NCBI GenBank assembly: GCA_045635805.1
Contig: JAZTWI010000015.1
Location: 3,474 to 67,473 of the forward strand
DNA length: 64,000 nt
Source: Clostridia bacterium
GTDB lineage: Bacteria; Bacillota; Clostridia; Christensenellales; UBA1242
Direction of reading: 5' to 3'
The notes beneath the pieces were generated by a model that saw only the letters and a program-made list of their open reading frames with translations, was not told the origin of the DNA and did no database searches. Position numbers and translations under genes: made by a program. Of the stretch, positions 3,108 through 27,802 are shown piece after piece. The first letter of the stretch is position 1. The number at the start of each line of letters is the position of its first letter.

Positions 3108-6100
3108 CTACCAGTTTGTATAAACATAAGTTTTTCCGTTATACTTAATTTCTAATATAATTAACTGGCTTATATCTCCCCTAAGGAATGAATACCAAAT
3201 ACCCCATGTTAATCCCGGAGGGGTTGTTGCGTTTCCTGACTTTTTATCAGAATACATCCATCTCCACCATGTGATATATTGTACACCATAAACATAGGTA
3301 TTATACCATCCGTTATTACTACCGCTTACAGTTTCTCTCTTGTCATAACCATTACCATTAACGTCTTTGCCACAATAGTCACAGTTATTATCAATCCAAG
3401 CTTCCTTATGTGCCTTATCACCAACTTTTTCAAGCGAACTATCTGATAAGAATGCATTACATTCCCCACATGTCATTCTCATAAAGTTAACTTCTATCCA
3501 ACAATGTCTTGGGTCTGGGTATTCAATCTTGATATTTCTATAGAATGTAAATACTCTACTTAATATGCTTCCACTTTTAAAACAATGTTTAATACCAGTA
3601 TTCCAATTATAGTTTCCTGTAGCATATGAACCCGTGCTGCTATTTCTAGAATATGAACAGTAATCGCATTTATAACGATATTTACCACAATTTGATTCTG
3701 AGACATATGAAGAATAATCATGATAATATTCAACTTTACTAGATGAGAAGTAGTGATTTCCATAGCCAGCTTCTTTATCTTGATAGTATTCAAGACATCT
3801 ACCACAATAATATGAGTTATAACTACTACAAGTAGCATCATCTCCATTTAAAACTTGTACTGCCTTTGCTTCCCATGTCATACCATAAGAAGAAGTATAT
3901 GACTGGAAGTTGGAATAATAAGGCCAACCAACCCCTCTTCCATCTGGGTACCAGAATTCGCCAGTCGACCTGGTGCCTTTATTGGTTGCGTACCACCATG
4001 CAGAATATTGTCCTGTACCTGTTTTCCATACAACCTCTAAGTGAGAGCCTGGACATTTTATAGTATATCCATATGAGCACTGATAACAATCCATCCAACC
4101 ATCTTTTAGACATTTAGACGCTGTAGAGGTGTACATATTATGAGTCTCATTCTGGGTTAGCGCCACTCTATAAGATTTGTCTAGATTATTTTTCACAGCA
4201 TAACAATTAGAGTTGTCGCAATAGTAGACGTGTTTATGTGTACTAGAACCATTACTTGTGTATGTATCATTACTAGTTACATCATACTTAGTATGTATCC
4301 ACGTAATAGTTTGAGAATGATATGTACAGTATTCACAAGTAGTCGTTGATACAATTCGACAGTTCTTACCATCTGTAGCCTTCATACTTAATTTGTGTAC
4401 ATCGTGTACTAATGTAAACTTAACTTTGTTGTCTCCAGCGGACTTTAGTATATTAGAATCTTTTACAACACTAAAGTACTCATCTGGATGAGAAGAAGAT
4501 TTATATGTATAAGCATTTTGTTGAATCGTTCCATTATCTCCACTATGACTCTCACCCAAAGCATTAAATGCTCTTAGATAATTTGGGGCAAACCTAAATG
4601 TATGGCTCTTAGAGATATTATCAAGTGTTGCCACTTTTTGAGTAATAGATAATGAGTTACCGTTTTGGTCTTTGCCATTCTTTAGTAAATCACTTGAGAT
4701 AGTAATAGTTCCATTGTGCTCATAGGTAAATGTTCTACCTCTCTTAAACCACTTAGGAGTGATTGTAATATCTTGTTGGATATCATCAATCATAAATGTA
4801 ATACCTGCAGAAGAAGTCTTAGAATATGTTCCAGACACATTCTTAACCACTGACGATATAGAATCTGAAGTAAAGTCTAAAACATTCCTTGCTGTTGAAC
4901 CATTCTTATATGCAGACAATTCGAATCCTAACAACATTACATCTGATGAATTATAACTTCTTAGAAGTGTATATAAGCTATCTTCATACTCATTTTTTGT
5001 TGTTGTAGATTTCTTGGCAAGTGTGTATTTGCCAAAGCCTGCATTTGTATCTGCAAACTTAAATGAGAAGCTCTCACCTTCAATTAATTCAATATTGAAG
5101 CTACTGAAATCTACTAATTTAGAAGATGTAACATTTTCGGACTTATTTGCCTCACTATATAGTGTTGAAGTTGTATTGAATTTAATTTCATATACTCTTA
5201 CTTCTTTCCAGATAGGGTAAATATCCACTCTTGAGATACTTCCACTGAGTCCTGTGATTGAAGACAATGAAATTGTCTTTTTCTGTTCATCAGTATCACC
5301 CTTTGGATTAAAGTAGTCTACGCTATCATATGTTACAGAATACTCTTCGCCTGCAGCATTATAGTATACAACTAAGTATCCCTTAATGTATGCCTTCCAA
5401 TCTGCTGGAGCTCTGGATGCATTTTCTGTTGTCCAGTTGTAATTTAAGTTCATTCCACTCACACCATTCTTACCATACTCATTCAAGCTATCTTGATATG
5501 GTGCAATATACATACCATTTGTAAGTCTATTTTCTTTTAATTTTGCAACTTGCATTATGTATGAATATGTACCACCACTTTGAGATGGAAGGTAAGCTGT
5601 ACTTCTAAGAGTAAATGTGCTGCTAGAAAGCGTATCAACATAGCCTTCGCTATCTGCGCCCTCAAGCGGGAATGTTGTGTTACCTGCAGTTCCAGATTGT
5701 TGAGTAAAGAATCTTACTTTTGCATAATGAGCAATACCAACATCTGTATTACCATATGGAAGATTCATAAGTAACCACTCTGTTGAACCTTTTAACTCTA
5801 CGTTAAAGTTAATGGTTGAAGCAGTTGCCGATGAGTTACTCATATTCTTACCAACTACCTGGTATGCATCAAAGTTAGTTGCTGTTAAGTTCTTAGTACC
5901 ATTAGCTGCTTTATTATTAATAAGCGTATTGATTCTACCATATAGGTCTGAATCTGCATATGTTAATCTTAGAGCAACGTCACTAGTATTTTCTTTCCAT
6001 GTATCTTCTAGTTTTGCACTGCCTTCACCATTGTTTGCATATATTGGCGCCATTCTATTAGGGATTTGATTTAGAACATCCATATATGAATATTGTGTAT

Positions 6101-9100: not shown

Positions 9101-12100
9101 GGACTTCTCTAGCTGTATAGGTTAGAGTGTATAGAACCTCACCAGAATTTAAGTCTCCATTAACATAGTTCTTTCTAATCTCTGCTTGGTAAATACCACA
9201 CTCTTCATTATTGGCGTTAATTGTTGTTCCAGTTTGTCCTAGAGACACAATTGAGAAATAAACATTGTGATGTTCTTCTTTTTCTAGTGCACTACCAACT
9301 CTAACACCTGTAGATGTTGTTGAATCTTTTTCAACAAAGTACATATATGTCTTATCTTCTATTGGTGTTACAGCACTAGTATTGCTATTTTGAATTGTAA
9401 AGTCTCCCCTATCTAGTTCATCTGGAGAGAACATAATAGGAGCGTTATGATGAGCGTTAACAGAAAGTTCAATTCCTGCAAACACCCTATCTTCACAGAA
9501 TGTACAATCTTCATGTGTACAATAGTCTACATACCTTGTGGTTGTTCCATTTCCATCAATGAAACTAATAGTTAATTCCCATATACCAAACGCATATACA
9601 CCAAATGAACCTGGTTTAATACGATAGAGATGAGTAGTATTAACATCTCCACCAACTAATAACACACCACCAAAGGTAATATCACTATTAGTTGAATCGG
9701 TAGAAACTTTAATTGCACCACCAATTGTAGTGATTGTTACATTATCCGCAATATAAGCAACATCTCTTCTACTTGCCGCAATCTGGTATGTGATAGGTAC
9801 AGAGAAGTATTTTTGATGCTCTGCTATTTCTGCATAAACTGCACCATTAATATAACGAGACTCTGTATCGTCAACTGTTACCTTATAGAACTTGGTGTTC
9901 TCTGTTGAGTAATAGATATTATCATTAGCAATTAATGTATTTAGATTTGTAAGTAGTAGGTTACTTAATCTATTTGTATAACTATTTCCAAAGCTGTCTT
10001 GGAAAGTTTGTCTTGCTAGATAATATGTACGAGTCTCCATTTGAGCAGTGTTCTTAGTATCATCTCCATCAACAGCATATGTGATATATATCTCAGCAAG
10101 AGATTTGCCACTTGTAGCTATTGTTACATAATCTGCAGTAAGTGCAGTAGTCTTTTTGATTGGAGTAGTAATGTTGCTAATACCATCTCCTAACCACTGA
10201 TTGAAGATATAACTAAAGTTTCCATAAGTTGGGTCTGCTACTCTAGCATCGTCATCACTCGGATGATTAAACATTTTCTTCTCTGGAGCATTTGTCTCTT
10301 TTGCTAATAAATCAAGAACAAATAGTGGTAATCTATTTACCTTTCTTAAATTTTCTAGAGTACAGAAATATCTTTCTGCTAGAATTTGTCTACCATCAGC
10401 AATACAAGCTCTATAGACTTCTTCGTCATATCCTGTATTAATTGTCAAATCACCCAATAAACTATCTTCAGCCCTATAGAATGTTACTTCGTTTGTAACA
10501 ATTACAAACTGTGCTTGAAGTTTTAGTTCTGGAATTAATTTTCCAGCGATATCTTTAAACATCTTAGAAAGTTCTGGAACGCTATAGCTTTGCTTATTTA
10601 ATGTTGCAAGGCTCTCATCTACATCATAACCAAATGCGTTAGAGTCTTTAGCTCCTGTATCAAATGAATGTAGTGTATATTTATTGTTAGTTGCAGTCTT
10701 CTCCATTGGAGTATATTTTACTTCAATTTGAGAATTGCTTGGAGCTTTTACATACATTTGAACAATGTCTGTCTTTATCTTTCCATCTGCAGCATAAATA
10801 CTTGTAAAGCCACCAACACCATTAGGAGTTAGAGCAAAGTGTCCCTTATTTCCTGCTGTAGTATATGAATTCTCTACAGTTAGCTCAGAAATTACTGCTC
10901 TATTTATATTATTAATAATAGCAGCTTCTTCTAAGTGAGATAGATATAATCCGTCATATTTTTCTTTTAGAGTTTCAATATCTAGATAGTCAATAATCTC
11001 TTGACCAAAGTATGCAATAATAGCATCTTCTAGTCTACCATACAACTCGATGACACCTTCACCGTGTTTAGCATAAATCTTACCATCAACTAATTGATAT
11101 TTCTTCTTAGTCTCTGTATCTTGTAAACTCTCCCAAATTTCGTCAAACCAGAAGTAATTTAGAAGTTGTTCTTTACCAAATTCGTAAACACTACCCATGC
11201 CTTCAGTAGATGCAATCTTGCTATTATATGTATTAGTATATTGTACATTGATTTCATCAAGGATATCTGTAATATCTGTTCCACCAACAACTGATGTTGT
11301 AGCAGCGCCAGACACAACTAAATCTTTGTGAATAGCAAGCATTGTGTATACGTTATCTTTATGGGTTACAGTTAGTCTAGATGCAGGGTTTGTCATTGCC
11401 GCCCATAGATTAGACCATGCTGATTCAGTAGTCTTAGTATACATTACATTGAAGTTAATAGCTTCTACTGCGTTTGGTAAAATCACAGCTTTAATCTTGT
11501 ACTCTGTAATGTATGAATTAGTTTCTCCATTATCTGATGGAGTAATTCTCTGAGTATTAGCAGAATTATCTAGGAATCCAATATTTGTAGGTGTTGGACT
11601 CCAACTATCGAAGTGATATCTATAATCAAGGTTTGTATTAACGTCTAAGTTCGCACTTTCTGGATTTAGCTTATCGCTACCATGCATTAATGTGAATACA
11701 TTTAAAATTGTACCATAAGGAACTTTTTCAATCTTAATTGTAGCATTCTCTGTATTTGCATTAGATATGCTATAAATCAAATTCATTGATGAATAGTTAG
11801 CTCCATCAGCATGTACTTGAATGCCAAGATTTACATTCATTGAATTAGAATTAAATGAATGTTTTGTTCCACCATTACCATCTAGGTAATATAGGTCAGC
11901 CTTAGTATCGTCATATACAAATGAAATATCATAAGATAAGTATTTAACTTGAAGAACGAAGATATTTGTGTTTACATTCTTAAGTTTATTGATAGTCACT
12001 CTATTCTTAATCTTAGTATAAGATGAGCCTAAATCATTCTCATCTGGATACTCTGTTGTTCTACTAATATTAACTACAAAATTAGCATTAGTATCGTCAG

Positions 12101-18100: not shown

Positions 18101-21100
18101 CGTCAATAGCATCTTCGCCCTCAGGAATTAATGTATTACTCTGAACAATACCTACTAGCTCATAACCTTCGTATGAGATATCGTAGCTCGCGTCGTTAGC
18201 AACAACAACGTGTGTATCGCCTGGTAGATAGAATCCACCTAAGCCTTCCATTACATTACCATTTGAATCAAAGTATGTGACTGCTACTTTCTCTGCCCAT
18301 ACTGCAATTAATTGATACTCAAAGTATCCATTACCAACTTCTGCATAGCCATTTTCTAATCCAAGTTTTCCGTACCTTTGAAGAGTTGAACCTTCAGTTT
18401 CTCTGAACCAAATCTCATAACCATCTAGCTTATACTCATTGTATGCAATAGTATCTGTTGTGGTAAATAGAACTGAACCATCTGCTAATTTCCATACATT
18501 ACCATCATTTGCAGGAACTAAATCACTAGTAAATGGTAAGTTTGTTCCAATAGAAGATAATTCAAATGTATACTCATCATAAGAGCCATTTGTATCTGTC
18601 ATTGTTAAGTATCCCTCGCCTGTTGGGTTAGAAATCTTAACAGTAACGTCTTTAGTTGTTTTATTTGTTGTCCATTGTGCTTTGATTGTGTATGTTGCAG
18701 CAAATTCACCATCGGCTGGTTTGCTTAGAGTAAATGGTCTACCAACTGAGAAGATTTTATCTTTCTCAATACCTGTAGCGCTGTCATTAAAGTAAACCTT
18801 GTAACCATCAAATACATGGCTAACGTGTGTTACTTCTAGTCTTGCACTAGAAATAGTAAATGTAGCACCATTTGTGTCTCCATTTTTATCTGCGTAAACT
18901 GTAAGTGTTTCGTTAGCAATCTCAGTTGATGTGAATATTTCACCACTATGATTTAATTCATATACAAACGTATAAGTATATACTTTATAATATACGGCAT
19001 TAATATATACATTCTCTGTATAAGTAGTTGTAACATTATTAAATGATTGTGCTGTACCTGCAGTAATTACATTGCCATTGATACTCCAACCATATAGATA
19101 ATATCCTGTTGGAACAGTCCAAGTAACATTTAAAGATTCGATATCATTAGTAGCGTCTGTATCTGTATCACTATATACAAGTGGAGTAAACTCTGCACCG
19201 AATTCTACTGTAGTCTCAATTCTCTCAGTAGTGCTCTCAGTCCATGTAGTACCATCTAGATATGTATTTACATAGTAAAGTTTTACAGGAGCACCTGTAA
19301 ACTGAGCAGTTAGAGTATAGTTGCTCTTAGCAAGAGTTTTTAATTCTCCTGTTTGAAGAGTTGAACCTACTAAGTCTCTATCTCCAGAAGTAACTAACCA
19401 ACCTGTAAATGTTTTACCAGAAATAGTTGTATTAATTGCTGTATCGCCATTGTAACCGATTTTCACTTCAGTTCCACCAGCGAAGTCTACATCTGTACCT
19501 GCGCCATCAACATTGTATGTGATAGTGTATGAGTTTTGCTCAAATAATGCAGTTAGGATATATGCAGAACTTGTAGCAATTTCAAATTCTTCCCCAGCTT
19601 CCATTACTGCACCAAGGTAATTCCAACCCATAAATGCGTTTTTCTCTTTAATTGCAGCTGGAAGCTCTACTTTAGAGCCTATATTTACTTGTATAGCGTT
19701 ATTGCTTACTTCAACTGTTTCTTCTTCTGTTACTACAAACATTGTATTACTAGATACTGTCACAGTCTCAGGAATTTCGCCACCACTTACATCGAACTTA
19801 ACAGTTCCTGTAACAGGAGCAAGTACTAAGTGAAGTGCAGCTGTCTTAGTAGCAACATCATAATCTAAGTCTGTTACCTTGATTGTATTACCACTAATAT
19901 TAATTGTTTTAGTTCCACTAGTAATAGATTTTACTTGGTAGTAACTACTTAAATTAAAGTTTGTAAGGATATTAGCTGTTGCATCTACTTCTACATCTTT
20001 AACAGTTTTATTTCCTGCATTTAGAATAGCAGAGTTAAATGCAAGAGTAGAATCGTCTGTTCCAAGGGCTGCCACTAATTCATACTCATATTCGTAAGAA
20101 ATTGTGATTTTTAGTCTTAGACTAGCAAAGTTAACAGCTACTTCGTTTGTTGTGCTAGTTGCATCAAAGTCTGTAAGACCCAATGTAACAGTCTCTGCAG
20201 TGTAAGTTTTCTCTGCATTTTTATTAACTCTCATATTAGTAAATGTATAGTTAGTTGCTCCTTCACCTGCAGTAATAACAACATCGTGTGTAAATGCGAT
20301 GGTTGCTATTTTTGCTTCAGTTGTAGAGCTTTGAGTTTTACTTAAGCCATCGTAAACGAAACCTGTTAAATTATCGTTTCCAACTACTGCAAAACTTACA
20401 GAACCATTATAAGGTGTGATTGTAACATCTAAAGTATTATATAGTCCGTATACAGGATAAAGTGTAACGATACCATCTTTAGCATTTGCTAACATATCGT
20501 TATTAACCTGGTAGTAACTAATATCTTCAGCAGCACCACTAACTATTGTCATTTCATAGAAGTTTTGTGGAATTAATCCTAATTTATATGGGGTTGTTGA
20601 CCAACCAAGGAACATATAATTTGGACTATCTAAATTGATAGCTTCAAATACGATTTGAGAACCATATCTTACCATTACAGATGTTTCCGTACCTGCAATT
20701 TGAGATAAAGTAGTACCATCGTAAGTATATACTGTTGTATAAGCATTAGCCCAATTAGAGTCAATAGCAAAGTCTGAGCCATCTGCTTTCTTAGAAGCAT
20801 AGAATTCGTATGGGTCTATAGCATCTTCACCATCTGTAACGTATGCTAGATATAGACCATAGCTCTTACCTTCCCAATTAAGTGTAATTGAAATAGTATT
20901 CTTACTAGCAGCATCAAGCATAGTTTCTAATTGATATCTAGTAAATGTCATTGATGTAGCTGTAGTCCAAACAAGTGTTGTGTCCGGACCTACCCATCTC
21001 CAGCCTGTCATCTCGTTATTTGGGTATGACTCAATTTCGTCAACAGGAAGAGCAGGAAGTTCCATCTTTGCATCTAGTCCTGATGGAACAATCTTTGCAA

Positions 21101-24100
21101 AGCCTGTGCTTGTACCACTCTCTACAAAGTACTCTAGGTACTCGTATTCAATTGTTTCTTGTCCTGCCATTGTACCAGCAGTATAAGAAACTGTATAAAC
21201 TGTTGTTAATTCTAGTGTAATATCTACATTTGCTGTAAATGTAAGTGCTGATAGTTCCGCAAGTGTGTAAATAGCAGCACCATATCTATAGCCTTGTAGA
21301 TAATAGTTAGTTCCAGCAAAAGTAAATGACATAGCATTGCCATTTAAATTAGCAGGAGCAAGGCCGTTATTTGTTGTAGATAAAGTATCTAAGATTTCAT
21401 CTGCAGACAATTGACCTTTGTTATCATACTTTAATGTAAAGATTAATCTATCATTAAATCTAAATGTTGCTTGTAAATCACAAGTCCAGATAGCGTATAC
21501 CATTGTATTAGCAGTAACGCCTGTTAGGCTATTTACTGTCTCGCCGTCTGCAGACCTACTCCAACCTTGGAAGGTATAGTTGTCTCTAGCAACTTTGATA
21601 GTACTCAAATCAATAGGTGTTTCTGTTGATAATGCTGTACTTGTGTATGTAGTTAATCTGTCATAAACTTCTACGTTCGCAGAAGCATTTTTATTAAATT
21701 CTACTTTGAACATTTGCTCAAAGATAGGAGTAGCAATCATATCTTTGTTAGTTGCAGTAAACGAACCATCAAATTCTACTTCGCTAACATATGTGTCAGC
21801 ACCCGTAGTAATCTTAAAGCCTTTTACTCTATAGTACTCTGTTGTTGTACCATTTGTAACAATATAAGCACCATTTTCAAAGTAAATAGTAGTCTTACCC
21901 TTGAAGTAAATACTCTTAACCACTTGTGGGTCAAATGTAACATCGTCGCCACTGAAGAAGTAAGATACTGCAGGAGTGTTTGTATATTGATAATCTGTAG
22001 CATCACTAGCACCAGCATAAGTGAAGCTGTATTTAATATCCCATACAGCGTATAGTACTAGGTCGCTAGTAACTTCTGCAAGTACTTGAGCGTCAGCAAG
22101 GATGCCATTGTGACCAACGGTTGACCAGCCCTTGATAGACATATTTGTTAGTTCATGGTCTGAACCACAAGTATGCTCAGCCACATCTAAGATATATTTG
22201 GTTGTTAATTCTTGACCGTACTCTACACTGAATGTAAATGTACATACTTCACTTGGAGAAGTAGAACCATCTTTTGAAATATTCACAGTAATCATAAATG
22301 ATTGAGCGTCCCAAGCAGCAAGAACTGTATACTCAAATACATTTCTTACAGGAACTACTGTATATTTTGCAGAATCTTCTCTAGGCATCATAGCATATGT
22401 ATCGCCAAATACTAGAGAGTCTTTCTCGTTTAGGATAATTTCTTCACCACTAGGATTTGTAAGTGGAGTAAATGTCCTTCTATTTAGGTTATCCACAGTA
22501 TAGTAACCTAGTCTCCAATGCTTAAATACTGTAGCAGTAGTAGAATTTAGGCTAGGAGTCTTATCAGCATCTAAGTCAAGCACCTTACCTGCTGTCAATT
22601 TAACATCAGCAATAGTCTTATCTACATCGCTATAAGCCATATCAAATTTAACTGTATACTCAGCTTCCCAAATAGCTACAAATCTAAATACTTGACCTTC
22701 TTCTACGATTGTTGGAATGTCAAAGTAGTTAGTTGCTGCATCACTTAGGATATATTCATCACCATTATGAGTCCAGCCCTTAATAGTGTAATTTTGTCTA
22801 TTGAAGCTAGGTAATTCTGCACTACCTAGTAACTGATATTTTTGACCATTTTTTGCTTGAGCAGTTGCAGTAATTTCTACTTCACCATTATTTAATTGCT
22901 CAGCTGTTTTTTCTTCGTAAACATATACGATACTAACGTTTATAGAGTTAGGATTTGGCTCACCAAATCTAGCAACTAAAGTAGTATCTTCGGTAAAGTC
23001 TACGATTTCTTCAAATTGGTATAGAGTGTCATCGCCATCAATAGCCCAACCTAAGAAGTCACAAGCAGCCTTAGTAGCAACTGCAGTAATCTTCATAGGA
23101 GTTAAAGACTCACCACTAGCGATTACGATAAATGTCTCACTAACTGCACCACTAGCAATACCAGAGATTGCTTCGCCTTGAGTAGTGTCTACAGTGTATG
23201 TGATAGTAACATCATAAGCACCAACAACTCTTAATTCGTGAGTATTACCTGTGTAATCAAGTCTAAGACCTGTAACTGACCAGCTACCATCTTGGCCTAA
23301 AGTTGCTTCATAACTATCTTCTCCGTAGATTACGAATAGTCTAGTATATCCAGCACCTAGTGTCATAGCAGGAAGTCTAGTAATTGTGATTGACTGAATA
23401 TAACCACCATCAAAGCAGTTATATTTAGACTCAAACATATTGCCACCACCTGCAAATGTAACACCTTCACTTGTATATCTAACAATAAATGACATATCAG
23501 CATAGAAAGATATTGCATATGAAGGATATGCGTCTGGGTCTAATTCAAAGTTCTCGCCTGGAGAATATAGTCTACCAGTATTAGAGTTTAATCTCCAACC
23601 ATTGAATACTAATTCAGAAGAACCAACTACTGTACTCTTATCAAGTAGAGTAACATATGGACTAGCTGCCATATATTCTACTTGGATAGGAGTTCCAACT
23701 AGTTCTGCTTCTGTTCCATTGAACTTATAGAAAGATAATGTAAAGATTTGTGTTGTTTTAGCAACGATTTTAACTGTTCCTACATAAACGTCACCATAGA
23801 TAGTGTCGTCACTTGAAGCATCTGCATCTACTTCCCAAGTCATAAATTGAGATAGTCCAGCCACGCTACTGAATCTAGCGCCTTGTGCAACTAGACCTAC
23901 AAGTTTTACACCTGTTGCTAGAGTAAGAGCAGTCTCTCCACTACCGATTTTCCATTGTCTAATTCTTAGACCACTAGTTAGAGTAAATCCAGCAGTTACT
24001 GCCTGTTCGTGTGTAAGAAGGATTAATTCCTTAGTATCGTTAAACTTATAGTTAGCGTGTTTACCTGTAATAGTCTGTAATCCATCATCAGTCTCATACA

Positions 24101-27100
24101 CGAATTCTACACGGTTAGCAGCCCAAGAGCTTCTAAATCTTATGTTATTACCTGTTTGAGAAACATCTTTAAATGTACTTTCGTTCCAAGTAATTGCCTC
24201 ACTAAATGTTACTGTTTCGTTTTCGTATGAATAAGTTACGCCCCTTAGAGTGTATGCTTTCATCTCAGATGTAGTATCTAGAGCAGTTGATAAGATATCT
24301 CTAATAGCAGCAACAACTTCTGCATAGATAAGCGCAGATGAGTCACCCTTGTTAACTACCTTTTGAACAGAACCAAGAGTTGTTCCTGATAAAGGTGAAA
24401 TAATATCGAAGTTTACCACATAGGTTTGAATAATGAAGTCAGCCCAAATAGTAAGCACACCATTATCGTGATGAATGATTGGGTCACCGTTGTTTAGGGC
24501 AACCTTCTCATTATTCTGTAGATAGTACCATCCATTGAAGATATATGCAGAATTACCATAGTCTGCGTATGTTGGTTCTGGTCTAGGAACATAGAAAGAC
24601 TCACCAAATTTTACAGTACCATGAGTTCCGCCACCAGCAGACATCTCGTATAGAGAAGCAACACTACCATCATATCTAGTTAGTTTATAATCAATTCTAA
24701 TGATAGTTTCTTCATAAATAGCATAGAAAACAAATGCTTTGTTTGGCTCAATTAAGTTAGCAGGAATGATAGCTCCATCACCATCTGCATCATATAATTT
24801 AGCACCAGATTTATTTCCCCAACCTGTTAGTTGGAGTCCTAAGTCAATTTTATTGAATAATGGATTTGAGTTGTATGGACTTAAGTCAAAGTCTTCACCG
24901 AAGTTAGCAGAAACAACTAAAGAGTTATTTGTTTGCTTGTCTACAAGTGTAATAGGGATTTGCATTGGGCTCCATACAGCATATAGAGTTACAACATTTC
25001 TAACACCACCATCTTCTGAAGCTGTTAGGTAGAAGTCTTTTTTCTCTGTTTTACCATATAGGTTATATTTACCTGTCTCGGTTTCTTTAGCTGTAGTAAA
25101 GTCAAATTCGATTGTTGTTCCTGTCTCATAGATGCCTTCTCCGGTTTCTAAATCGTAAACCAAAGTACCATTAGCATCAGCAAATGCCCAACCTAGTAGG
25201 TTATAGCCATTCTTTTTAAGGTTAGCACCTGTTAGAGTAACAGACATTTTTAAGTTAGAACTTGATGGGTTTGTACTATATTTTACTGTAGCAGGAACTG
25301 TACCTGTACCTGAGTTTTTATCAAATGTTACAATGTAGTCTGTTGTCCATACTGCATAGTAAGAAGCATCGCCTACAACAGATACAGATGTAAACTTAGA
25401 ACCTGCAGCATTTTTGTAGATAGTCTCTGCCGCTTGAATCTCGCTAAGCTTAGTATCTACAGGGTATTGTGTTCTAGTCCAACCTTCGAAAATATATCCT
25501 GGTCTATTAGGAGCAGAAGGAACTACAACGTTTGCTCCACCTGCAACAGAATAAGAGTTTTTATTCTCAGTTCCGTCATTATGGAAGAAATCAACAGTAT
25601 ATGTATCTTTTTTCCAATTAACATATAGAGATAATGCTCTATCTGCCATCTCGTATTCGTAGCCTGCAGCATATGTTTTAGCTGAAGCATAGTTTGGTCT
25701 AGTTGTCCAACCATCAAATGAGTTGTATTGTTTAGACCAGCCTAGTGTATTTAATACAACATCGGCTTCTGGAAGCGCTAGTTTTTCACCAGCAATAGCT
25801 TCGATTTTTACCTTTCTAACACTATTTAATGCGTCAAGTAATGTTAAGTATGTTAATTGTGACCATTGTGCATATAATGTTACGTCACCACTAACTGTGT
25901 GTACATATGTAGTATCAACAAATCTATATGTACCCTTACCTGCCCACTCGTTGTTATTTACTTTGGTTAGATTGATACTATAGTTGCTAGCATCTTGTGC
26001 CCAAGCATTATACCAAACATTGCCTTCTTCTTCGTCAGCATTAGGTGCTGTTGTCCAGCCTGTGAATCTAAAGTTTTTAAGACTAGCCTTGAAGTCTTCT
26101 GTTGTGATATATGGGTTAGATAAATCTAAAGTATTGTAGTAATTTCCATTTTTTCTACTATCTGCATCAAATACAGATGTTGTGTAATATTTGCCATAAG
26201 TGTCATCAAATTTGTAAACAGGGATACTAGGAATATATCCACTAGAACCATTCATTCTCTTATTGAAATGAAGTTTATAAGAATTTCTCTCCCACTTAGA
26301 GTAAAGACGGAATTTGTAAACACCATCTTCTGGGTCTTGGTAAGAAGGAATTGGGTCACCAACTTCTTGACCAGAAGAGTCTTTCATAACTAAGTATGGG
26401 ACATCATTGTTGTCTACAGCAACAGTCATATCGTAGTCTGCTACTGATTTAGTTAAATCATAGTCTAGATACCAGCCCTTAAATGAATATTCACTGTAGC
26501 TGCCATCTGCATCATTAAATGTATCTGCTGCTTCTAGGGTTGGAGTAATGCCTTCGATAGCAGTAGAAATTTTATTTGTATATCTAACAAGTGAAGTATT
26601 GCCTGAAAGTCTATTATTTCTAATAATAAACTCACCATTTGCGTTTTTTGCAGGTGTAATAGAAGTATCAGTCACAGGGTCAAGTACGGTACTATCTGCC
26701 ATACTATTATACTGACTGAAGTATTCAATACCTGAGTATAGTTGTACAGAGTATTTATTAGCCTGGAAGTAAGCATAAACGTCTAGGTTACCAGCAGTAC
26801 TGAGTCTTTGCTCACTGCCTGGTAGCCATACTACTGCTGTTGATTCGTTGGCATCTGTAATATTCTCTGTAGACCAACCCTTGAAGGTATGTCCTTTTAC
26901 TGCTGTAAACTCTGGTAATAATTCACCATTAGCACCCCTACCTGTAGGAAGTCTAAATAGGCTATTAAAGTCTACCTGTTTAGGCTCACAACCTAGTACA
27001 GAATCACTAGGACTCCATAGTCCTGTAACAGGGTCCTGTACCATAACGTGGAATGTAACGGTATATGTATTAACGGTATACTGAGCGTATAGGTCAAGTT

Positions 27101-27398
27101 CGTCTTCTACAAGCTCCCTATCCGGCTCTATAGCGTGTAAACCATCGTAGTCGTAAGTCCACTCTCTAAAGGTATAACCGAGTTTCTGATACCCAGCCAC
27201 ATTACCCAGCGTGGAGTGTTTCTTAACCGAATACTCCTTTAGAATCACATCGCCATCGTACATCGTGATATTTGTCTTTGGATATGCATACACATAAAGA
27301 ATTGTTGCTAGAAGCGATAATAACAACAACACAACAATCACGACAGTCTTGATAAGTAAATTTTGTCTCTCTGTACTAACTTCTCTTACTTCGCTCAT
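3108..27398 (-). CDS. Giant (~8,096 aa) cell-surface repeat protein with InlB B-repeat/Listeria-Bacteroides-like domains and a Cys/His-rich C-terminus; putative adhesin
   Basis: Uninterrupted 24.3-kb ORF. ATG 27398 (MSEVRE) follows GGGAG. One N-terminal hydrophobic helix (LLIKTVVIVVLLLLSLLATILYVYA). At least 30 recurring [GNY]Y-x-F-x-GW type motifs (GHTFKGWST, GYIFEGWTR, NYTFQGWSR, GYDFVGWTQ), many followed by lyA.W/F strands. No LPXTG or SLH motif seen. Confidence 0.9.
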   Translation of the reverse strand: MSEVREVSTERQNLLIKTVVIVVLLLLSLLATILYVYAYPKTNITMYDGDVILKEYSVKKHSTLGNVAGYQKLGYTFREWTYDYDGLHAIEPDRELVEDELDLYAQYTVNTYTVTFHVMVQDPVTGLWSPSDSVLGCEPKQVDFNSLFRLPTGRGANGELLPEFTAVKGHTFKGWSTENITDANESTAVVWLPGSEQRLSTAGNLDVYAYFQANKYSVQLYSGIEYFSQYNSMADSTVLDPVTDTSITPAKNANGEFIIRNNRLSGNTSLVRYTNKISTAIEGITPTLEAADTFNDADGSYSEYSFKGWYLDYDLTKSVADYDMTVAVDNNDVPYLVMKDSSGQEVGDPIPSYQDPEDGVYKFRLYSKWERNSYKLHFNKRMNGSSGYIPSIPVYKFDDTYGKYYTTSVFDADSRKNGNYYNTLDLSNPYITTEDFKASLKNFRFTGWTTAPNADEEEGNVWYNAWAQDASNYSINLTKVNNNEWAGKGTYRFVDTTYVHTVSGDVTLYAQWSQLTYLTLLDALNSVRKVKIEAIAGEKLALPEADVVLNTLGWSKQYNSFDGWTTRPNYASAKTYAAGYEYEMADRALSLYVNWKKDTYTVDFFHNDGTENKNSYSVAGGANVVVPSAPNRPGYIFEGWTRTQYPVDTKLSEIQAAETIYKNAAGSKFTSVSVVGDASYYAVWTTDYIVTFDKNSGTGTVPATVKYSTNPSSSNLKMSVTLTGANLKKNGYNLLGWAFADANGTLVYDLETGEGIYETGTTIEFDFTTAKETETGKYNLYGKTEKKDFYLTASEDGGVRNVVTLYAVWSPMQIPITLVDKQTNNSLVVSANFGEDFDLSPYNSNPLFNKIDLGLQLTGWGNKSGAKLYDADGDGAIIPANLIEPNKAFVFYAIYEETIIRIDYKLTRYDGSVASLYEMSAGGGTHGTVKFGESFYVPRPEPTYADYGNSAYIFNGWYYLQNNEKVALNNGDPIIHHDNGVLTIWADFIIQTYVVNFDIISPLSGTTLGSVQKVVNKGDSSALIYAEVVAAIRDILSTALDTTSEMKAYTLRGVTYSYENETVTFSEAITWNESTFKDVSQTGNNIRFRSSWAANRVEFVYETDDGLQTITGKHANYKFNDTKELILLTHEQAVTAGFTLTSGLRIRQWKIGSGETALTLATGVKLVGLVAQGARFSSVAGLSQFMTWEVDADASSDDTIYGDVYVGTVKIVAKTTQIFTLSFYKFNGTEAELVGTPIQVEYMAASPYVTLLDKSTVVGSSELVFNGWRLNSNTGRLYSPGENFELDPDAYPSYAISFYADMSFIVRYTSEGVTFAGGGNMFESKYNCFDGGYIQSITITRLPAMTLGAGYTRLFVIYGEDSYEATLGQDGSWSVTGLRLDYTGNTHELRVVGAYDVTITYTVDTTQGEAISGIASGAVSETFIVIASGESLTPMKITAVATKAACDFLGWAIDGDDTLYQFEEIVDFTEDTTLVARFGEPNPNSINVSIVYVYEEKTAEQLNNGEVEITATAQAKNGQKYQLLGSAELPSFNRQNYTIKGWTHNGDEYILSDAATNYFDIPTIVEEGQVFRFVAIWEAEYTVKFDMAYSDVDKTIADVKLTAGKVLDLDADKTPSLNSTTATVFKHWRLGYYTVDNLNRRTFTPLTNPSGEEIILNEKDSLVFGDTYAMMPREDSAKYTVVPVRNVFEYTVLAAWDAQSFMITVNISKDGSTSPSEVCTFTFSVEYGQELTTKYILDVAEHTCGSDHELTNMSIKGWSTVGHNGILADAQVLAEVTSDLVLYAVWDIKYSFTYAGASDATDYQYTNTPAVSYFFSGDDVTFDPQVVKSIYFKGKTTIYFENGAYIVTNGTTTEYYRVKGFKITTGADTYVSEVEFDGSFTATNKDMIATPIFEQMFKVEFNKNASANVEVYDRLTTYTSTALSTETPIDLSTIKVARDNYTFQGWSRSADGETVNSLTGVTANTMVYAIWTCDLQATFRFNDRLIFTLKYDNKGQLSADEILDTLSTTNNGLAPANLNGNAMSFTFAGTNYYLQGYRYGAAIYTLAELSALTFTANVDITLELTTVYTVSYTAGTMAGQETIEYEYLEYFVESGTSTGFAKIVPSGLDAKMELPALPVDEIESYPNNEMTGWRWVGPDTTLVWTTATSMTFTRYQLETMLDAASKNTISITLNWEGKSYGLYLAYVTDGEDAIDPYEFYASKKADGSDFAIDSNWANAYTTVYTYDGTTLSQIAGTETSVMVRYGSQIVFEAINLDSPNYMFLGWSTTPYKLGLIPQNFYEMTIVSGAAEDISYYQVNNDMLANAKDGIVTLYPVYGLYNTLDVTITPYNGSVSFAVVGNDNLTGFVYDGLSKTQSSTTEAKIATIAFTHDVVITAGEGATNYTFTNMRVNKNAEKTYTAETVTLGLTDFDATSTTNEVAVNFASLRLKITISYEYEYELVAALGTDDSTLAFNSAILNAGNKTVKDVEVDATANILTNFNLSSYYQVKSITSGTKTINISGNTIKVTDLDYDVATKTAALHLVLAPVTGTVKFDVSGGEIPETVTVSSNTMFVVTEEETVEVSNNAIQVNIGSKVELPAAIKEKNAFMGWNYLGAVMEAGEEFEIATSSAYILTALFEQNSYTITYNVDGAGTDVDFAGGTEVKIGYNGDTAINTTISGKTFTGWLVTSGDRDLVGSTLQTGELKTLAKSNYTLTAQFTGAPVKLYYVNTYLDGTTWTESTTERIETTVEFGAEFTPLVYSDTDTDATNDIESLNVTWTVPTGYYLYGWSINGNVITAGTAQSFNNVTTTYTENVYINAVYYKVYTYTFVYELNHSGEIFTSTEIANETLTVYADKNGDTNGATFTISSARLEVTHVSHVFDGYKVYFNDSATGIEKDKIFSVGRPFTLSKPADGEFAATYTIKAQWTTNKTTKDVTVKISNPTGEGYLTMTDTNGSYDEYTFELSSIGTNLPFTSDLVPANDGNVWKLADGSVLFTTTDTIAYNEYKLDGYEIWFRETEGSTLQRYGKLGLENGYAEVGNGYFEYQLIAVWAEKVAVTYFDSNGNVMEGLGGFYLPGDTHVVVANDASYDISYEGYELVGIVQSNTLIPEGEDAIDAIIALMSDNGTYMPFGSNLAVEGETYLYPALTRIYTIEFKASLDVLADRGGDLDNVVVNGKSYGSEGFVDTVSTTVYYSNNRDTYYIRDIFTNYFAPMYTNSTGTYSFVGFSLISGKMGYDLGENVIRDYELDEDDDIDGDYVITIYAIWDRQTYTVSFQLNAKNKNGVTVTTGSDTKQYYYKEKVDLAYEETEEGFEFATDEIEALVANVEGYRFTGFSLDANGNTPVVNEYEVLSGATIYINFEGVYTIHFVDKYGSSGIRTTVTFEDCNNTYDELIGKTIAKADHALPADMGSQMAEMWYLENYREGETVIKRDFFSAGDHTLSMADLNAADENYNLYIVLEWTVRTYTVNLHYFSSSSNMLQGNYDAVASVDTFLVGDFVVNLDHSTHILSSKYDGDIRVNGEELDINDLVEIFYNESGEYSVWARAALVRSATDGETVSDLADFVVGPQWATNPTVDPYTLDLYLIYEHALFDINVDSYIVDGDNAWKAYLPFNYTLHDETYEGVAYIEMSYADELTLGEQNNTGYILTSYAIYDVENDTILYGQEAVNAVKDYVDLAFDADGHVTITHLRSDIYEDTEKYKLIAVYAIKYVEVSILVTSDNNLVDTIDPNIRIDHIALDWSLLGESSTAVQFGEQTNIIAKNLQTATRTNEVSGKPEKVWMFYSPYGSNITIDDPQYPSPYLINSIATNNEVIGALDKELSKDAPYGFDSLSAGMVEHDDKFTITIAIDYGLNNQAVYLSTYAPSSDSYASISGGVNYTLKGNAQTAEISYGLYSAGNTNYIYKAEIPYGAIITNDFAIPSITGYDFVGWTQKIYSYGEDGQTTSTEEEFGDVQIIVEGELFFVANFTPSRLTVKFTNTNGTVIDALTINEDNKSNNGFIDNDNNGYISIGDEITLPYAYIADETTMSYAWEVGEFGATYKIERALYINADEYVIAAISYDIYYVTFHNAEGAASTFTITSEFTQTPSVYSIIQSGYSEDLVLLNGKQFFMFAEGEIVESGVIDLGSEESYTVTRSLTIPDTILETATGKANFDGWSGRTSGNVIDNIYYFDNGDVDGITHEIKLYAIESYETQVKLYITDANGNKVKVNTGIGTTENYNKDYFTLSVITGADLNMTVIPTSYSFEKEGTTVEVTKWSVYSIFDEVNPMYQFFTAGNMLKDYEFHGWTINLENAKAYEDIQSQYSALISSSALYYEFERGVRVNTYDGVNNMNALIKEEKTSFYTIWETKHTVTLVATAGEDGKDYNNTNKYAAGQLINLKQETFELSDKKWIGWQVVVGYTSIGADGQAVGGTKYAYIFDSAACPNDLGISPANVINNVTEFTMGKDNVYMIPLWSRGIMVYLDVNFGAMRELYAKAMQSYISIGEKGILDATGIPQLVDGEYSYIFEDFSTETINSKAYTNVYRLGALDGNYYFSMGNIVSFDEWIAGYFTDVSGWISVFEHSYYTNGTTWSYDKNYFDLSGIYYMNGTNKVYVMKYGQALSNALEVTGDMIRDGDLTLYLEWTPAIMEVKFYEYKLTDGMTDADLKAYTFERETEENGNTIYESVEYTLYVPFGGRISSVETTEDNRVYLYSETDGLGTLEDLKTVDKYDNPYGDSRYFRLTHWSEMDNHLYNSSLDYNGNPTNPDSTIFGYSTYTESIVGNVRLYPVFIQAYHINFVVGKSYEDLLETEEYVIEGESFHVKGKLVNPNYLSRIKYIVSASHMIMPEDELCPDTYDFDMSLDIENQEVYIRIYFNLDMTTYVPVYTDGTEGEVATAEELKTITLNLNEVYYISDLFGEPEEGKDKFTTPDMTPYGNATFANWYLSNVQNYYSNDVAYLMGNYATDTYSEYSLNLSEISRLTLRQSGTKINILLYYLSGSVVTVEMSDLMSVYAKIYNTNDLAVAHNASQYAHLSVARTVDAEGNELGYINEDYFVLNDATKLSATGEDGYTKIQYTTVYNSAYTPVVDLVTNDGYNLSKVDVYNNYDSFINNSGTVASVTPRFWEKVEGTHTDDTNANFVVNISRTTEYPDENDLGSSYTKIKNRVTINKLKNVNTNIFVLQVKYLSYDISFVYDDTKADLYYLDGNGGTKHSFNSNSMNVNLGIQVHADGANYSSMNLIYSISNANTENATIKIEKVPYGTILNVFTLMHGSDKLNPESANLDVNTNLDYRYHFDSWSPTPTNIGFLDNSANTQRITPSDNGETNSYITEYKIKAVILPNAVEAINFNVMYTKTTESAWSNLWAAMTNPASRLTVTHKDNVYTMLAIHKDLVVSGAATTSVVGGTDITDILDEINVQYTNTYNSKIASTEGMGSVYEFGKEQLLNYFWFDEIWESLQDTETKKKYQLVDGKIYAKHGEGVIELYGRLEDAIIAYFGQEIIDYLDIETLKEKYDGLYLSHLEEAAIINNINRAVISELTVENSYTTAGNKGHFALTPNGVGGFTSIYAADGKIKTDIVQMYVKAPSNSQIEVKYTPMEKTATNNKYTLHSFDTGAKDSNAFGYDVDESLATLNKQSYSVPELSKMFKDIAGKLIPELKLQAQFVIVTNEVTFYRAEDSLLGDLTINTGYDEEVYRACIADGRQILAERYFCTLENLRKVNRLPLFVLDLLAKETNAPEKKMFNHPSDDDARVADPTYGNFSYIFNQWLGDGISNITTPIKKTTALTADYVTIATSGKSLAEIYITYAVDGDDTKNTAQMETRTYYLARQTFQDSFGNSYTNRLSNLLLTNLNTLIANDNIYYSTENTKFYKVTVDDTESRYINGAVYAEIAEHQKYFSVPITYQIAASRRDVAYIADNVTITTIGGAIKVSTDSTNSDITFGGVLLVGGDVNTTHLYRIKPGSFGVYAFGIWELTISFIDGNGTTTRYVDYCTHEDCTFCEDRVFAGIELSVNAHHNAPIMFSPDELDRGDFTIQNSNTSAVTPIEDKTYMYFVEKDSTTSTGVRVGSALEKEEHHNVYFSIVSLGQTGTTINANNEECGIYQAEIRKNYVNGDLNSGEVLYTLTYTAREVLVGLSWIVSYTENSTTKAIPLKNAGASYEFTDLRNIHNVFPLSRQTDIKFVFTDGLNDGVEVYGVVTNLEDNGIDYLRHHLSSGKIFTATNSTSNTQLLEGTEVKIVRVDNKYQIYNAETNVGHFGYISINTSAVYLTNIRLQYKNLQGEWVDFEESGTFAQPSVIELNPDGVSRNMYVRMACEWATYEVDFETVYRNSNDNGGLDAYSAEVGSDYVSVSLNNKTELLGSRINVAGENTDKKTLKVFAGSVIEYSEDSREFTIKSPKYGPSISIADDVKVGDYRKAAGETYDYTLTGWVKETSTNGIVEIIDAAYTDGLDVNSEEFKSLHLTFIAWVEKSQDFKVSIDTTTEGYTHGHGKVTINRKTAIDIFAGRDGETQEYNYTQLVEKGNTGYYALYTGVGKTNLFSVVIEESENIHQLISATFVTPTRTGTEVVTRYAEEWRSGITNSAYTFGTEIKVLFDAADTLSNIRVYDANNTPVKDSNNVFMKHDLYGGYKYEFAEKEKDKVYTLKITDYWNNSELHKYDYELKENTVFRQLFQSMYDTEQDRDTGGAVMGYRGTEISMTNDNSGKYVAIKINERTVAINFIISINYIDKYKNEHTGIQSYSDWKDMLEIKNSSNTSYTSSNMRVECGTQTMNLSLFANKGAGLGGVLFNYINPDPGKEEYNYIFRAINEFALESVTISPAYPVETDLVNKSITTKYASQSAIVETVSGHPGKLLRDTEITYTQYIIQVQLTQRATVNVSFGLSLPYATDYRNLQISTAEIPQDKKVISTGERYFTVNGHRLDAGSATDINVYNSALTNSKDSEGDVFMPSNFKIEPTSTVHLTATNITAGTLYTIYINAEGNTASRVNILQFIDDGTYNFNGIYIVEGSSAQYVALTNEAFTGTGQITSYSMWGATEHKTELKKAVGQTHTIMGDARIMLYFTRKVVSVTVDENIWAVNYDKSYGGQYFYESLNTNLVFSKKSSGATTYKLPSGLVGVVPTNFGATESFYQNTQYSYMDVLNQIPNRMAPIYANNGEGSAKLEDTWKENTSDVALRLTYADSDLYGRINTLINNKAANGTKNLTATNFDAYQVVGKNMSNSSATASTINFNVELKGSTEWLLMNLPYGNTDVGIAHYAKVRFFTQQSGTAGNTTFPLEGADSEGYVDTLSSSTFTLRSTAYLPSQSGGTYSYIMQVAKLKENRLTNGMYIAPYQDSLNEYGKNGVSGMNLNYNWTTENASRAPADWKAYIKGYLVVYYNAAGEEYSVTYDSVDYFNPKGDTDEQKKTISLSSITGLSGSISRVDIYPIWKEVRVYEIKFNTTSTLYSEANKSENVTSSKLVDFSSFNIELIEGESFSFKFADTNAGFGKYTLAKKSTTTKNEYEDSLYTLLRSYNSSDVMLLGFELSAYKNGSTARNVLDFTSDSISSVVKNVSGTYSKTSSAGITFMIDDIQQDITITPKWFKRGRTFTYEHNGTITISSDLLKNGKDQNGNSLSITQKVATLDNISKSHTFRFAPNYLRAFNALGESHSGDNGTIQQNAYTYKSSSHPDEYFSVVKDSNILKSAGDNKVKFTLVHDVHKLSMKATDGKNCRIVSTTTCEYCTYHSQTITWIHTKYDVTSNDTYTSNGSSTHKHVYYCDNSNCYAVKNNLDKSYRVALTQNETHNMYTSTASKCLKDGWMDCYQCSYGYTIKCPGSHLEVVWKTGTGQYSAWWYATNKGTRSTGEFWYPDGRGVGWPYYSNFQSYTSSYGMTWEAKAVQVLNGDDATCSSYNSYYCGRCLEYYQDKEAGYGNHYFSSSKVEYYHDYSSYVSESNCGKYRYKCDYCSYSRNSSTGSYATGNYNWNTGIKHCFKSGSILSRVFTFYRNIKIEYPDPRHCWIEVNFMRMTCGECNAFLSDSSLEKVGDKAHKEAWIDNNCDYCGKDVNGNGYDKRETVSGSNNGWYNTYVYGVQYITWWRWMYSDKKSGNATTPPGLTWGIWYSFLRGDISQLIILEIKYNGKTYVYTNW

Positions 27399-27526
27399 TT
27401 TTATTTTCTCCCATTGTTTCACTTGTATTTTTTGCTTTAAAATTTTACCCTTCAGCACCTGCCACCCTAGCGATAATTTAGGGTATAAAAATAGCAAATA
27501 CTTAATAATATAAAATCTCTAGTAAT

Positions 27527-27556
27527 ATTATATATTTAAACAACACTTTTAGTCAA
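27527..27556 (-). promoter_or_regulatory. Sigma-A-type promoter of giant gene
   Basis: TTGACT (27556-27551) - 18 nt - TATAAT (27532-27527) on the minus strand. Confidence 0.6.
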
Positions 27557-27775
27557 TCTTTTTGACCAACTATCGAAAAGTAAAACTAAATAAATTTTCC
27601 TGTCGAAAAATCTAAAATTTTGCTGTACTTTTGGCGATTTATTATACCTACAAATTTAGTTTATTCAAAAGATATTTATTTATTAAATTAGAGAATACTT
27701 TGATATGTAAAATAAAAAAATTAAAACATAACTTGTTATGTTTTAAAATTTAAAAATTAACGAATTTTTACAAAG

Positions 27776-27802
27776 AAAAAAGCACGCCTTTTCGCGTGCT
27801 TT
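27776..27802 (-). terminator. Terminator of typA
   Basis: AAAGCACGC/GCGTGCTTT stem with an A-run on its downstream (minus-strand) side. Confidence 0.8.

Follow-up and report, generated by a model that had tools for sequence, protein, structure and literature searches.

What does a bacterium with a genome of 1.24 Mb do with a single gene that occupies 2.0% of its length? The question is raised by a 64,000-nucleotide stretch of contig JAZTWI010000015.1 (positions 3,474 to 67,473 of the forward strand; assembly GCA_045635805.1, a metagenome-assembled Clostridia draft of 16 contigs and 98.9% completeness, assigned to Christensenellales, UBA1242), the whole of which we refer to as the window. On the minus strand of the window, positions 3108–27398 hold a coding sequence of 24.3 kb and 8,096 codons, with an ATG at 27398 and the stop codon at 3108–3110. 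The answer that we favour, with a probability of roughly 0.6, is that this giant gene encodes a type II membrane-anchored fibrillar adhesin-like protein, in which a stalk of beta-grasp modules carries a specialised, fast-evolving distal tip.

An intact giant gene conserved across a genus

The giant open reading frame (ORF) is a real, conserved gene. No in-frame stop interrupts its 8,096 codons, compared to about 620 expected from the base composition of the gene, and the remaining two frames of the same strand contain 548 and 1,064 stops. In the ORF listing the frame spans 3108–27497 (8,129 amino acids (aa) if counted from an upstream TTG); the ATG at 27398 follows, at a distance of 9 nt, the sequence GGGAG (27408–27412, minus strand), which reads as a Shine-Dalgarno element. 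The encoded protein has a mass of 903 kDa, an isoelectric point (pI) of 4.55 and a net charge of -444. Within the gene we found neither tandem DNA repeats nor direct DNA repeats longer than ~40 nt at more than 78% identity, and self-BLASTP of the protein gave no off-diagonal match; recent expansion and repeat-mediated misassembly are therefore both excluded. An earlier reading of the bare DNA (hereafter the original prediction) had proposed both a stop-free single frame and highly diverged internal repeats, and these observations agree with it on both counts.

Apart from the genome studied here, 16 of the 41 species genomes in the genus carry a long-form homologue. Wherever the contig is not cut, the homologous ORF measures 7.8–8.3k aa and is collinear with the giant, and these full-length homologues come from independent assemblies of different studies. 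The housekeeping gene bipA lies directly upstream in 11 of the 11 long-form loci that include the upstream flank (11 species), and at these same loci BipA is 89–96% identical, versus 20–70% for the giant protein. In sister genera of the family, as elsewhere in the order, the giant gene is missing and only generic matches to the Flg_new family turn up, in smaller proteins; a search of 5.8 billion proteins returned only two giant relatives, P0002 (7,981 aa, 53% identity) and P0003 (7,803 aa, 27%). The conserved bipA locus, the contrast with BipA and the absence from sister genera mark the gene, by these comparisons, as vertically inherited, genus-specific and unusually fast-evolving. The original prediction of an old, maintained gene thus stands as regards maintenance, given positional orthologues of similar length next to bipA and a gene free of DNA repeats, while its age extends to the genus only. 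A metagenome scan with the single giant protein gave two weak, uninformative matches, and in the literature we found nothing specific on this giant family.

Smaller proteins (614–2,056 aa; G321:C1, G443:C2 and G458:C13) from other families of the order match residues ~4–120 of the giant, a span that covers its predicted transmembrane helix and first Flg_new module. To judge from these matches, the N-terminal anchor-plus-module design seems to predate the giant gene and to be more widely distributed.

A single N-terminal helix as probable membrane anchor

The protein begins with a short tail, residues 1–16 (MSEVREVSTERQNLLIK; 27351–27398, minus strand), which would lie in the cytoplasm; an 'E-R-x-S/N-x-ERK' pattern ahead of the helix is kept in the long-form homologues. 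Residues 17–38 (27285–27350, minus strand) form a single predicted transmembrane helix, on the combined grounds of hydropathy, AlphaFold2 modelling and conservation, and a conserved YVYxYP motif comes next. With a Kyte-Doolittle score of 2.89, compared to 1.48 for the next best segment, residues 17–38 are the only strongly hydrophobic stretch of the protein, as the original prediction had stated. The hydrophobic region runs for ~22 residues without a helix breaker, AlphaFold2 places one continuous helix at residues 10–38, and the helix together with the following motif, 'LY(V/I)YxYP(K/R)', is conserved in all homologues and belongs to the most conserved parts of the protein.

A putative cleavage site, VYA|YP, can be drawn directly after the helix, and its -1 residue varies by homologue between A, S, L, F and Y. 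Under the -3/-1 rule, L, F and Y at this position are unsuited to signal peptidase I, so that cleavage there does not fit many of the homologues. The helix is probably an uncleaved signal-anchor by which the giant is held in the membrane at its N terminus, in keeping with the type II topology originally proposed.

Searches for other means of attachment were negative. No LPXTG-like motif was found near the C terminus, which is not hydrophobic, and Pfam gave no match in the giant to SLH, choline-binding, Gram-positive-anchor, LysM, SH3b, DUF5776 or CW_binding domains, the first three having none even at E<=10; the lack of LPXTG, SLH and choline-binding anchors noted from the DNA is thereby upheld. 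Sortase (PF04203) had no match in this genome, while control genomes score. Sortase anchoring was considered and is ruled out, since the genome has no sortase and the protein no LPXTG-like motif. Lipoprotein signals stand at the start of the genome's other giants as well, so that tethering by the N terminus appears to be usual in this bacterium.

A stalk of beta-grasp modules

Given a 20-sequence orthologue alignment, AlphaFold2 models the 1,160 residues that follow the helix as ~11 beta-grasp modules arranged head to tail. This proximal stalk (residues 39–1195; 23814–27284, minus strand) consists of modules of 70–160 aa that resemble Flg_new and the InlB B-repeat, joined by linkers of 1–3 residues. 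The model of residues 1–1200, which comprises the N-terminal helix and these modules, has a predicted local distance difference test (pLDDT) score of 81.2, and the last strand of each module passes almost straight into the first strand of the next. A Foldseek comparison of the model with the PDB placed tandem ubiquitin-like arrays at the top (USP7 HUBL and linear tetra-ubiquitin), with further matches to the Lactococcus surface protein YwfG, an immunoglobulin-binding protein of R. gnavus, MUB and SraP, while a single domain matched the InlB B-repeat 2y5p_C with a probability of 1.00, a template modelling (TM) score of 0.77 and a root-mean-square deviation of 2.0 A over 70 columns. It is from these tandem-array and B-repeat matches that we assign the beta-grasp fold to residues 1–1200, the InlB B-repeat being itself a beta-grasp domain (PMC8900821). 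Published work on fibrillar adhesins, moreover, counts Flg_new among their stalk domains (bioRxiv 10.1101/2021.12.07.471604).

Profile searches point the same way. Flg_new (PF09479), whose scan the original prediction had recommended, scores 69.6 bits with a cut-off of 27 (E 2.4e-19), only 2 stretches being individually significant, and TIGR02543 scores 32.1 bits with a curated cut-off of 20.95; these are the only Pfam and the only NCBIfam family, respectively, found in the giant. The assignment to InlB-B/Listeria-Bacteroides beta-grasp repeats, made at first from the letters of the DNA, is thus supported by both fold and family. The Pfam signal for Flg_new is confined to residues 1–2400, with a weak trace near 3900.

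Further from the membrane the modules become harder to recognise. The middle stalk (residues 1196–4760; 13119–23813, minus strand) appears to be made of diverged Flg_new-like modules with larger inserts, as judged from conserved Trp columns and from hhalign, which matched the module profile at ~13 sites with 50–96% probability. For the protein as a whole, profile-profile search gave ~12 module sites with a probability of >=83%, or ~19 when the threshold is lowered to >=50%, and every one of these precedes residue 4760. In an alignment of 22 homologues ~30 x-G-W Trp columns are conserved, ~20 of them in the middle stalk and the outermost at residue 6397, and a strict FxGW-type regular expression matched 37 times, compared to 17.7 +/- 3.8 in shuffled sequences. 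The distal stalk (residues 4761–7679; 4362–13118, minus strand) has sparse, weak module-like signals and predicted helical inserts; hhalign found seven to nine weak module-like matches between residues 4760 and 7560, scoring 17–30 with a shuffled maximum of 15.0, and across 18 homologues the sole Pfam match in this region is LRR_5, in members of a short-form clade described below.

By these alignments, module signatures become sparser along the chain and can be followed as far as about residue 7,550. Combining the profile-profile sites, the conserved Trp columns and the weak distal matches, a fair estimate is ~30–40 modules in all, with a density that declines from one per ~110 aa to one per ~300–400 aa. 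The figure of at least 30 FxGW-type repeats in the original prediction consequently holds at the level of the motif, whereas stricter tests give fewer. An iterative hidden Markov model (HMM) seeded with a single repeat found only itself, and one seeded with the orthologue alignment converged at 8 modules, so that profile-profile search was needed for more.

Two minor observations concern the stalk. A 339-aa ORF at the end of contig C15 (~69.8–70.8 kb), beyond the right end of the window, contains 2 modules (E 3e-6) and is the only other ORF of the genome that matches the Flg_new-like module profile. Within the distal stalk, an isolated Cys cluster, C-x4-C-x2-C, lies at residues ~5960–5968 (window 9500–9530) and is kept only in the closest clade (G015, G004/P0002 and G054).

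A Cys/His-rich tip and a conserved end-piece

The last ~420 residues, as far as can be read from sequence, are a separate Cys/His-rich array followed by a Trp-rich end-piece. The array (residues 7680–8013; 3360–4361, minus strand) comprises five or six mini-units with the consensus C-x6-10-C-x2-C-x7-17-H. Of the giant's 38 cysteines, 21 lie in this array, as do six of its total of seven CxxC motifs. In 18 aligned units, C4, C12, C15 and H26 are invariant, often within 'ATCxxDGxxxxCxxCGYxxTxxxxGH', and the Cys/His columns of the tip are conserved in the close clade. Every full-length long-form homologue has 22–35 Cys and 4–9 CxxC motifs in its last 800 aa and almost none elsewhere, which bears out the distinct C-terminal tip that had been predicted.

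The end-piece (residues 8014–8096; 3111–3359, minus strand) is an 83-residue Trp/Tyr-rich segment that contains 'GLTWGxWYxxxRG(D)' and is conserved in alignment with G015, P0002, P0004 and P0005. Its RGD, in 'WYSFLRGDIS', is kept in G000, G015, P0004 and P0005 and replaced by RGL in P0002; the tripeptide may be a coincidence, and any relevance to host integrins is conjectural.

Searches beyond the genus with the tip itself reached little. HMMER with the last 800 aa retrieved only two fragments from 1.84 billion representative proteins, both covering the end-piece, and the tip profile reaches only the close clade and, marginally, P0003. A model of the mini-unit (CCCH, for its three Cys and one His) was run on a sample of 250 Clostridia genomes from 157 genera; 58 of the genomes, covering 43 genera, contain tandem arrays that repeat every ~40 aa, so that relatives occur in at least 23% of the sample. 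The arrays constitute a widespread tandem mini-repeat of Clostridial surface proteins, of the form 'GHxWxxGxVTxxPTCxxxGxxTxxCxxCxxxxTExIxAxGH'. In one such protein, L063 (G173:C21), at least 13 units connect an N-terminal domain to a membrane anchor at the C terminus. Neither the tip of the window protein nor the units of L063 had a match in Pfam, NCBIfam or PDB sequences, and our literature search on the repeat returned nothing specific. The units possibly bind metal, disulfide formation being the alternative.

Conservation falls towards the distal end

Aligned with its closest orthologue, the giant is 74–80% identical near the N terminus and 27–41% identical at the C terminus, and by this comparison conservation declines steadily with distance from the membrane. 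The tips of different sub-clades can no longer be aligned, yet the CCCH architecture persists.

Several genomes of the genus also encode short-form homologues of 5.7–6.5k aa (loci L049–L056; G053, G050, G045 and G055), which share the N-terminal helix and the first modules with the giant. In three of these genomes (G045, G053 and G055), the distal 1,500 aa of the short form carry arrays of BspA-type leucine-rich repeats (LRRs; LRR_5, PF13306; E down to 7e-83). The short forms do not adjoin bipA and were for this reason rejected as positional orthologues, being homologues at another locus. That the short clade shares helix and first modules but carries LRR_5 distally suggests that distal heads are exchangeable on a common anchor and stalk.

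A proposed membrane-anchored surface fibre and its alternatives

The stalk, the distinct end and the LRR heads of the sister clade together make adhesion, in our analysis, the most likely role of the giant. In the mechanism that we propose, the helix would act as an uncleaved Sec/signal recognition particle (SRP) signal-anchor with a single pass, N-in/C-out, which would leave ~8,060 residues outside the cell. The chain would cross the wall and form a fibril of roughly 0.15–0.25 micrometres, at whose end the CCCH array and end-piece could form a head that binds a partner cell, a particle, or a glycan or mucus of the host, and the distal end would diverge under pressure from ligands, phages or host immunity. 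The N-anchored filament with a C-terminal tip set out in the original prediction is supported as an overall reading, the part of the tip in binding a ligand being one that we infer.

Several observations weigh against this reading. The AlphaFold2 model of residues 1–1200 has a predicted TM score (pTM) of only 0.38 for the relative arrangement of its modules, so that both the rod geometry and the length of the fibril are our inference; the model of the C-terminal 800 aa, from 5 sequences, is unusable (pLDDT 33.7); and residues 4761–7679, or 36% of the protein, have no Pfam match in the window protein. The window protein and its closest relatives have V at -3 and A at -1 of the putative cleavage site, as the -3/-1 rule requires, which makes cleavage conceivable in this species. 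Finally, the CCCH units may be a spacer rather than a binding head, since in L063 they separate a head domain from the membrane anchor at the C terminus.

The alternative that survives best, although we consider it unlikely, is a non-specific coat. The giant would still be anchored and would have no defined ligand, forming with the other giants of the genome an acidic brush in place of a surface layer (S-layer) or capsule; such a brush would repel phages, immunoglobulins and enzymes, and distal divergence would reflect escape from phages or immunity rather than adaptation to a ligand. The net charge and pI given above suit this explanation, as do the ~7% of the genome invested in five ORFs of 3.5–8.4k aa, three of them with lipoprotein signals, and the rapid evolution of the most exposed end; in addition, neither Pfam nor NCBIfam identified an adhesive domain in the window protein. 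A pure spacer, however, needs no specialised end, whereas the CCCH array and the Trp-rich end are kept in all long-form homologues, and the sister clade carries BspA LRRs, a protein-binding domain, in the distal position.

We attach still less weight to the explanation in which the helix is a cleaved signal, with signal peptidase I cutting at VYA|YP and an 8,058-residue product that is released or held non-covalently. In addition to the fit of V and A just mentioned, it can draw on Giant1-5 of Apilactobacillus kunkeei, which carry Sec signals cleaved by signal peptidase I and occur in the supernatant (PMC12863079). It accords poorly with L, F or Y at -1 in many homologues whose helix and YxYP motif are conserved, with a hydrophobic region that is long, unbroken and modelled as one continuous helix, and with the failure to find a C-terminal wall-binding domain (SH3b, DUF5776, SLH, LysM or CW_binding). 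On balance, the probably retained helix of the proposed membrane-anchored fibre agrees with the anchor, rather than a cleaved signal, of the original prediction.

Delivery of a variable C-terminal effector into neighbouring cells, after the fashion of polymorphic toxins, is very improbable. The combination of a variable C terminus and a conserved N-terminal body would be expected of such a system, but Pfam and NCBIfam scans found no toxin, pre-toxin or processing domain, the gene is followed by a terminator and a convergent transporter gene rather than by an immunity-type gene, and variation in the long clade takes the form of gradual divergence of the same CCCH architecture, not of cassette swapping. 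An assembly artefact or decaying pseudogene, which a metagenome-assembled draft might have led one to suspect, is practically out of the question with no stop in the frame, no repeats to mis-join and collinear full-length homologues in independent assemblies.

Building on the proposed membrane-anchored fibre, a bolder proposal, which we regard as speculative and rather doubtful, is that the CCCH units are an undescribed family of extracellular, probably metal-binding mini-domains, and that their array on an N-anchored beta-grasp fibre of ~0.2 micrometres would be the organ by which a reduced bacterium with a 1.0–1.4-Mb genome attaches to the partner cell or host surface on which it depends.

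Relation to known surface proteins

Among bacterial surface fibres the giant belongs to a familiar kind, within which it represents a new family. No general principle is changed by it: other systems already provide examples of giant repeat adhesins, of Flg_new stalks and of N-to-C polarity. Its closest kin are the Flg_new or Listeria-Bacteroides repeat proteins, with which it shares the domain family, above curated cut-offs, the beta-grasp fold and the use of modules in tandem as an extracellular stalk. The prototype is the InlB B-repeat of Listeria monocytogenes, and fibrillar adhesins also use the repeat as a stalk domain, as do adhesin-like proteins of gut methanogens. InlB, however, contains a single B-repeat and attaches through GW modules at its C terminus, whereas in the giant ~30–40 strongly diverged copies, interrupted by large inserts, lie between a predicted N-terminal membrane helix and an unrelated tip.

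In polarity, the giant would resemble the type I-secreted RTX adhesins of Gram-negative bacteria. Proteins such as LapA, SiiE and MpIBP keep their N-terminal end at the cell, have a long repeat stalk and bind ligand near the C terminus, and the giant, which is of a similar size class, would share with them the arrangement of N-terminal anchor and C-terminal tip. It differs in that it would be held by a membrane helix, not by a plug in an outer-membrane channel, and in no tenth of the protein did RTX repeats, a type I secretion system (T1SS) signal or BIg domains have a Pfam match at E<=10.

The LPXTG/sortase-anchored fibrillar adhesins of Gram-positive bacteria, including serine-rich repeat proteins (SRRPs), SasG/Aap and MUB (bioRxiv 10.1101/2021.12.07.471604), likewise combine a long stalk of small beta domains with a distinct end. 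In the giant their polarity would be reversed, with an N-terminal anchor and a C-terminal tip; LPXTG and sortase are missing, and the repeats are not near-identical. Of the features by which fibrillar adhesins are recognised, it has the stalk of tandem domains, may have the surface anchor in its conserved N-terminal helix, and lacks a known adhesive domain, LRR_5 being present only in short-clade homologues. The BspA-type LRR surface proteins are approached by the short homologues in G045, G053 and G055, which carry LRR_5 on the same probable N-terminal anchor and Flg_new stalk; the window giant, in contrast, has no LRR_5, and its distal end is the CCCH array. The CCCH units themselves were compared with metal-binding mini-domains of the zinc-ribbon and treble-clef types, for which four conserved metal ligands at knuckle spacing would be expected; in the aligned units three Cys and one His are invariant.

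A small genome rich in giants has a parallel in A. kunkeei, whose 1.5-Mb genome devotes ~6% to extracellular Giants of 3,000–8,000 aa that are fast-evolving and have imperfect repeats (PMC12863079). In Giant1-5 of that species a Sec signal is cleaved off, the N terminus forms a beta-solenoid head, the stalk consists of alpha-helical repeats, and SH3b-like/DUF5776 domains at the C terminus bind the wall (PMC12863079). The likeness lies in genome economy, with ~7% spent on five giants here, in rapid evolution and in imperfect repeats. The polarity would be opposite, the folds differ, there is no sequence relation, and the giant has no DUF5776 or SH3b match.

In the Clostridia genus studied here, one gene takes up 2% of the genome, remains intact at the same locus genus-wide and changes in sequence far faster than its housekeeping neighbour, a pattern that identifies its product as a surface structure of central importance when these uncultured, probably dependent gut bacteria encounter their environment. 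The giant would be a clear example of a fibril held in the membrane by its N terminus, in a Clostridia lineage without sortase, and its gene is a defined target for antibodies, for imaging linked to fluorescence in situ hybridization (FISH) and for cryo-tomography on enrichments. As a by-product, the analysis yields a common, unannotated Cys/His mini-repeat of Clostridial surface proteins that is worth adding to domain databases.

Other giants of the genome

Five giants, including the studied gene and ORFs of 3,617 and 3,478 aa, account for the ~7% of the genome mentioned above. The remaining two are encoded by adjacent genes at C1:269187-285572 and C1:285912-311051 (L074, L075 and L076), just upstream of rpoB/rpoC; they measure 5,462 aa and 8,380 aa and have the lipoprotein signals LWAC|GSD and LFAC|GSD, respectively. 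Pfam at E<=0.001 gave no match in either of them, which leaves 13,842 aa without annotation. Paralogy of the studied giant with the other giants of the genome was considered and rejected. The CCCH mini-repeat and these two domain-less giant lipoproteins may be more novel leads than the giant itself.

Flanking signals of the giant gene

On the flanks of the gene, promoter-like sites and terminators are present, in line with the original prediction that it has its own promoter and terminator, as matches to consensus only. A consensus scan identified a sigma-70-like promoter, TTGACT-18-TATAAT, at 27527–27556 (minus strand; 11 of 12 positions), and a second candidate, TTGAAT-16-TATAAT, at 27641–27668 (minus strand). 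The best promoter-like site is positioned downstream of the bipA terminator, a candidate hairpin at 27779–27802 (minus strand), likewise recognised at the level of consensus. At the other end, ~120 nt past the stop codon of the giant, a predicted bidirectional intrinsic terminator (2957–2988, both strands), with a 14-bp stem and a T-run on either side, is common to the giant gene and to the convergent ATP-binding cassette (ABC) transporter gene at 1156–2916 on the plus strand.

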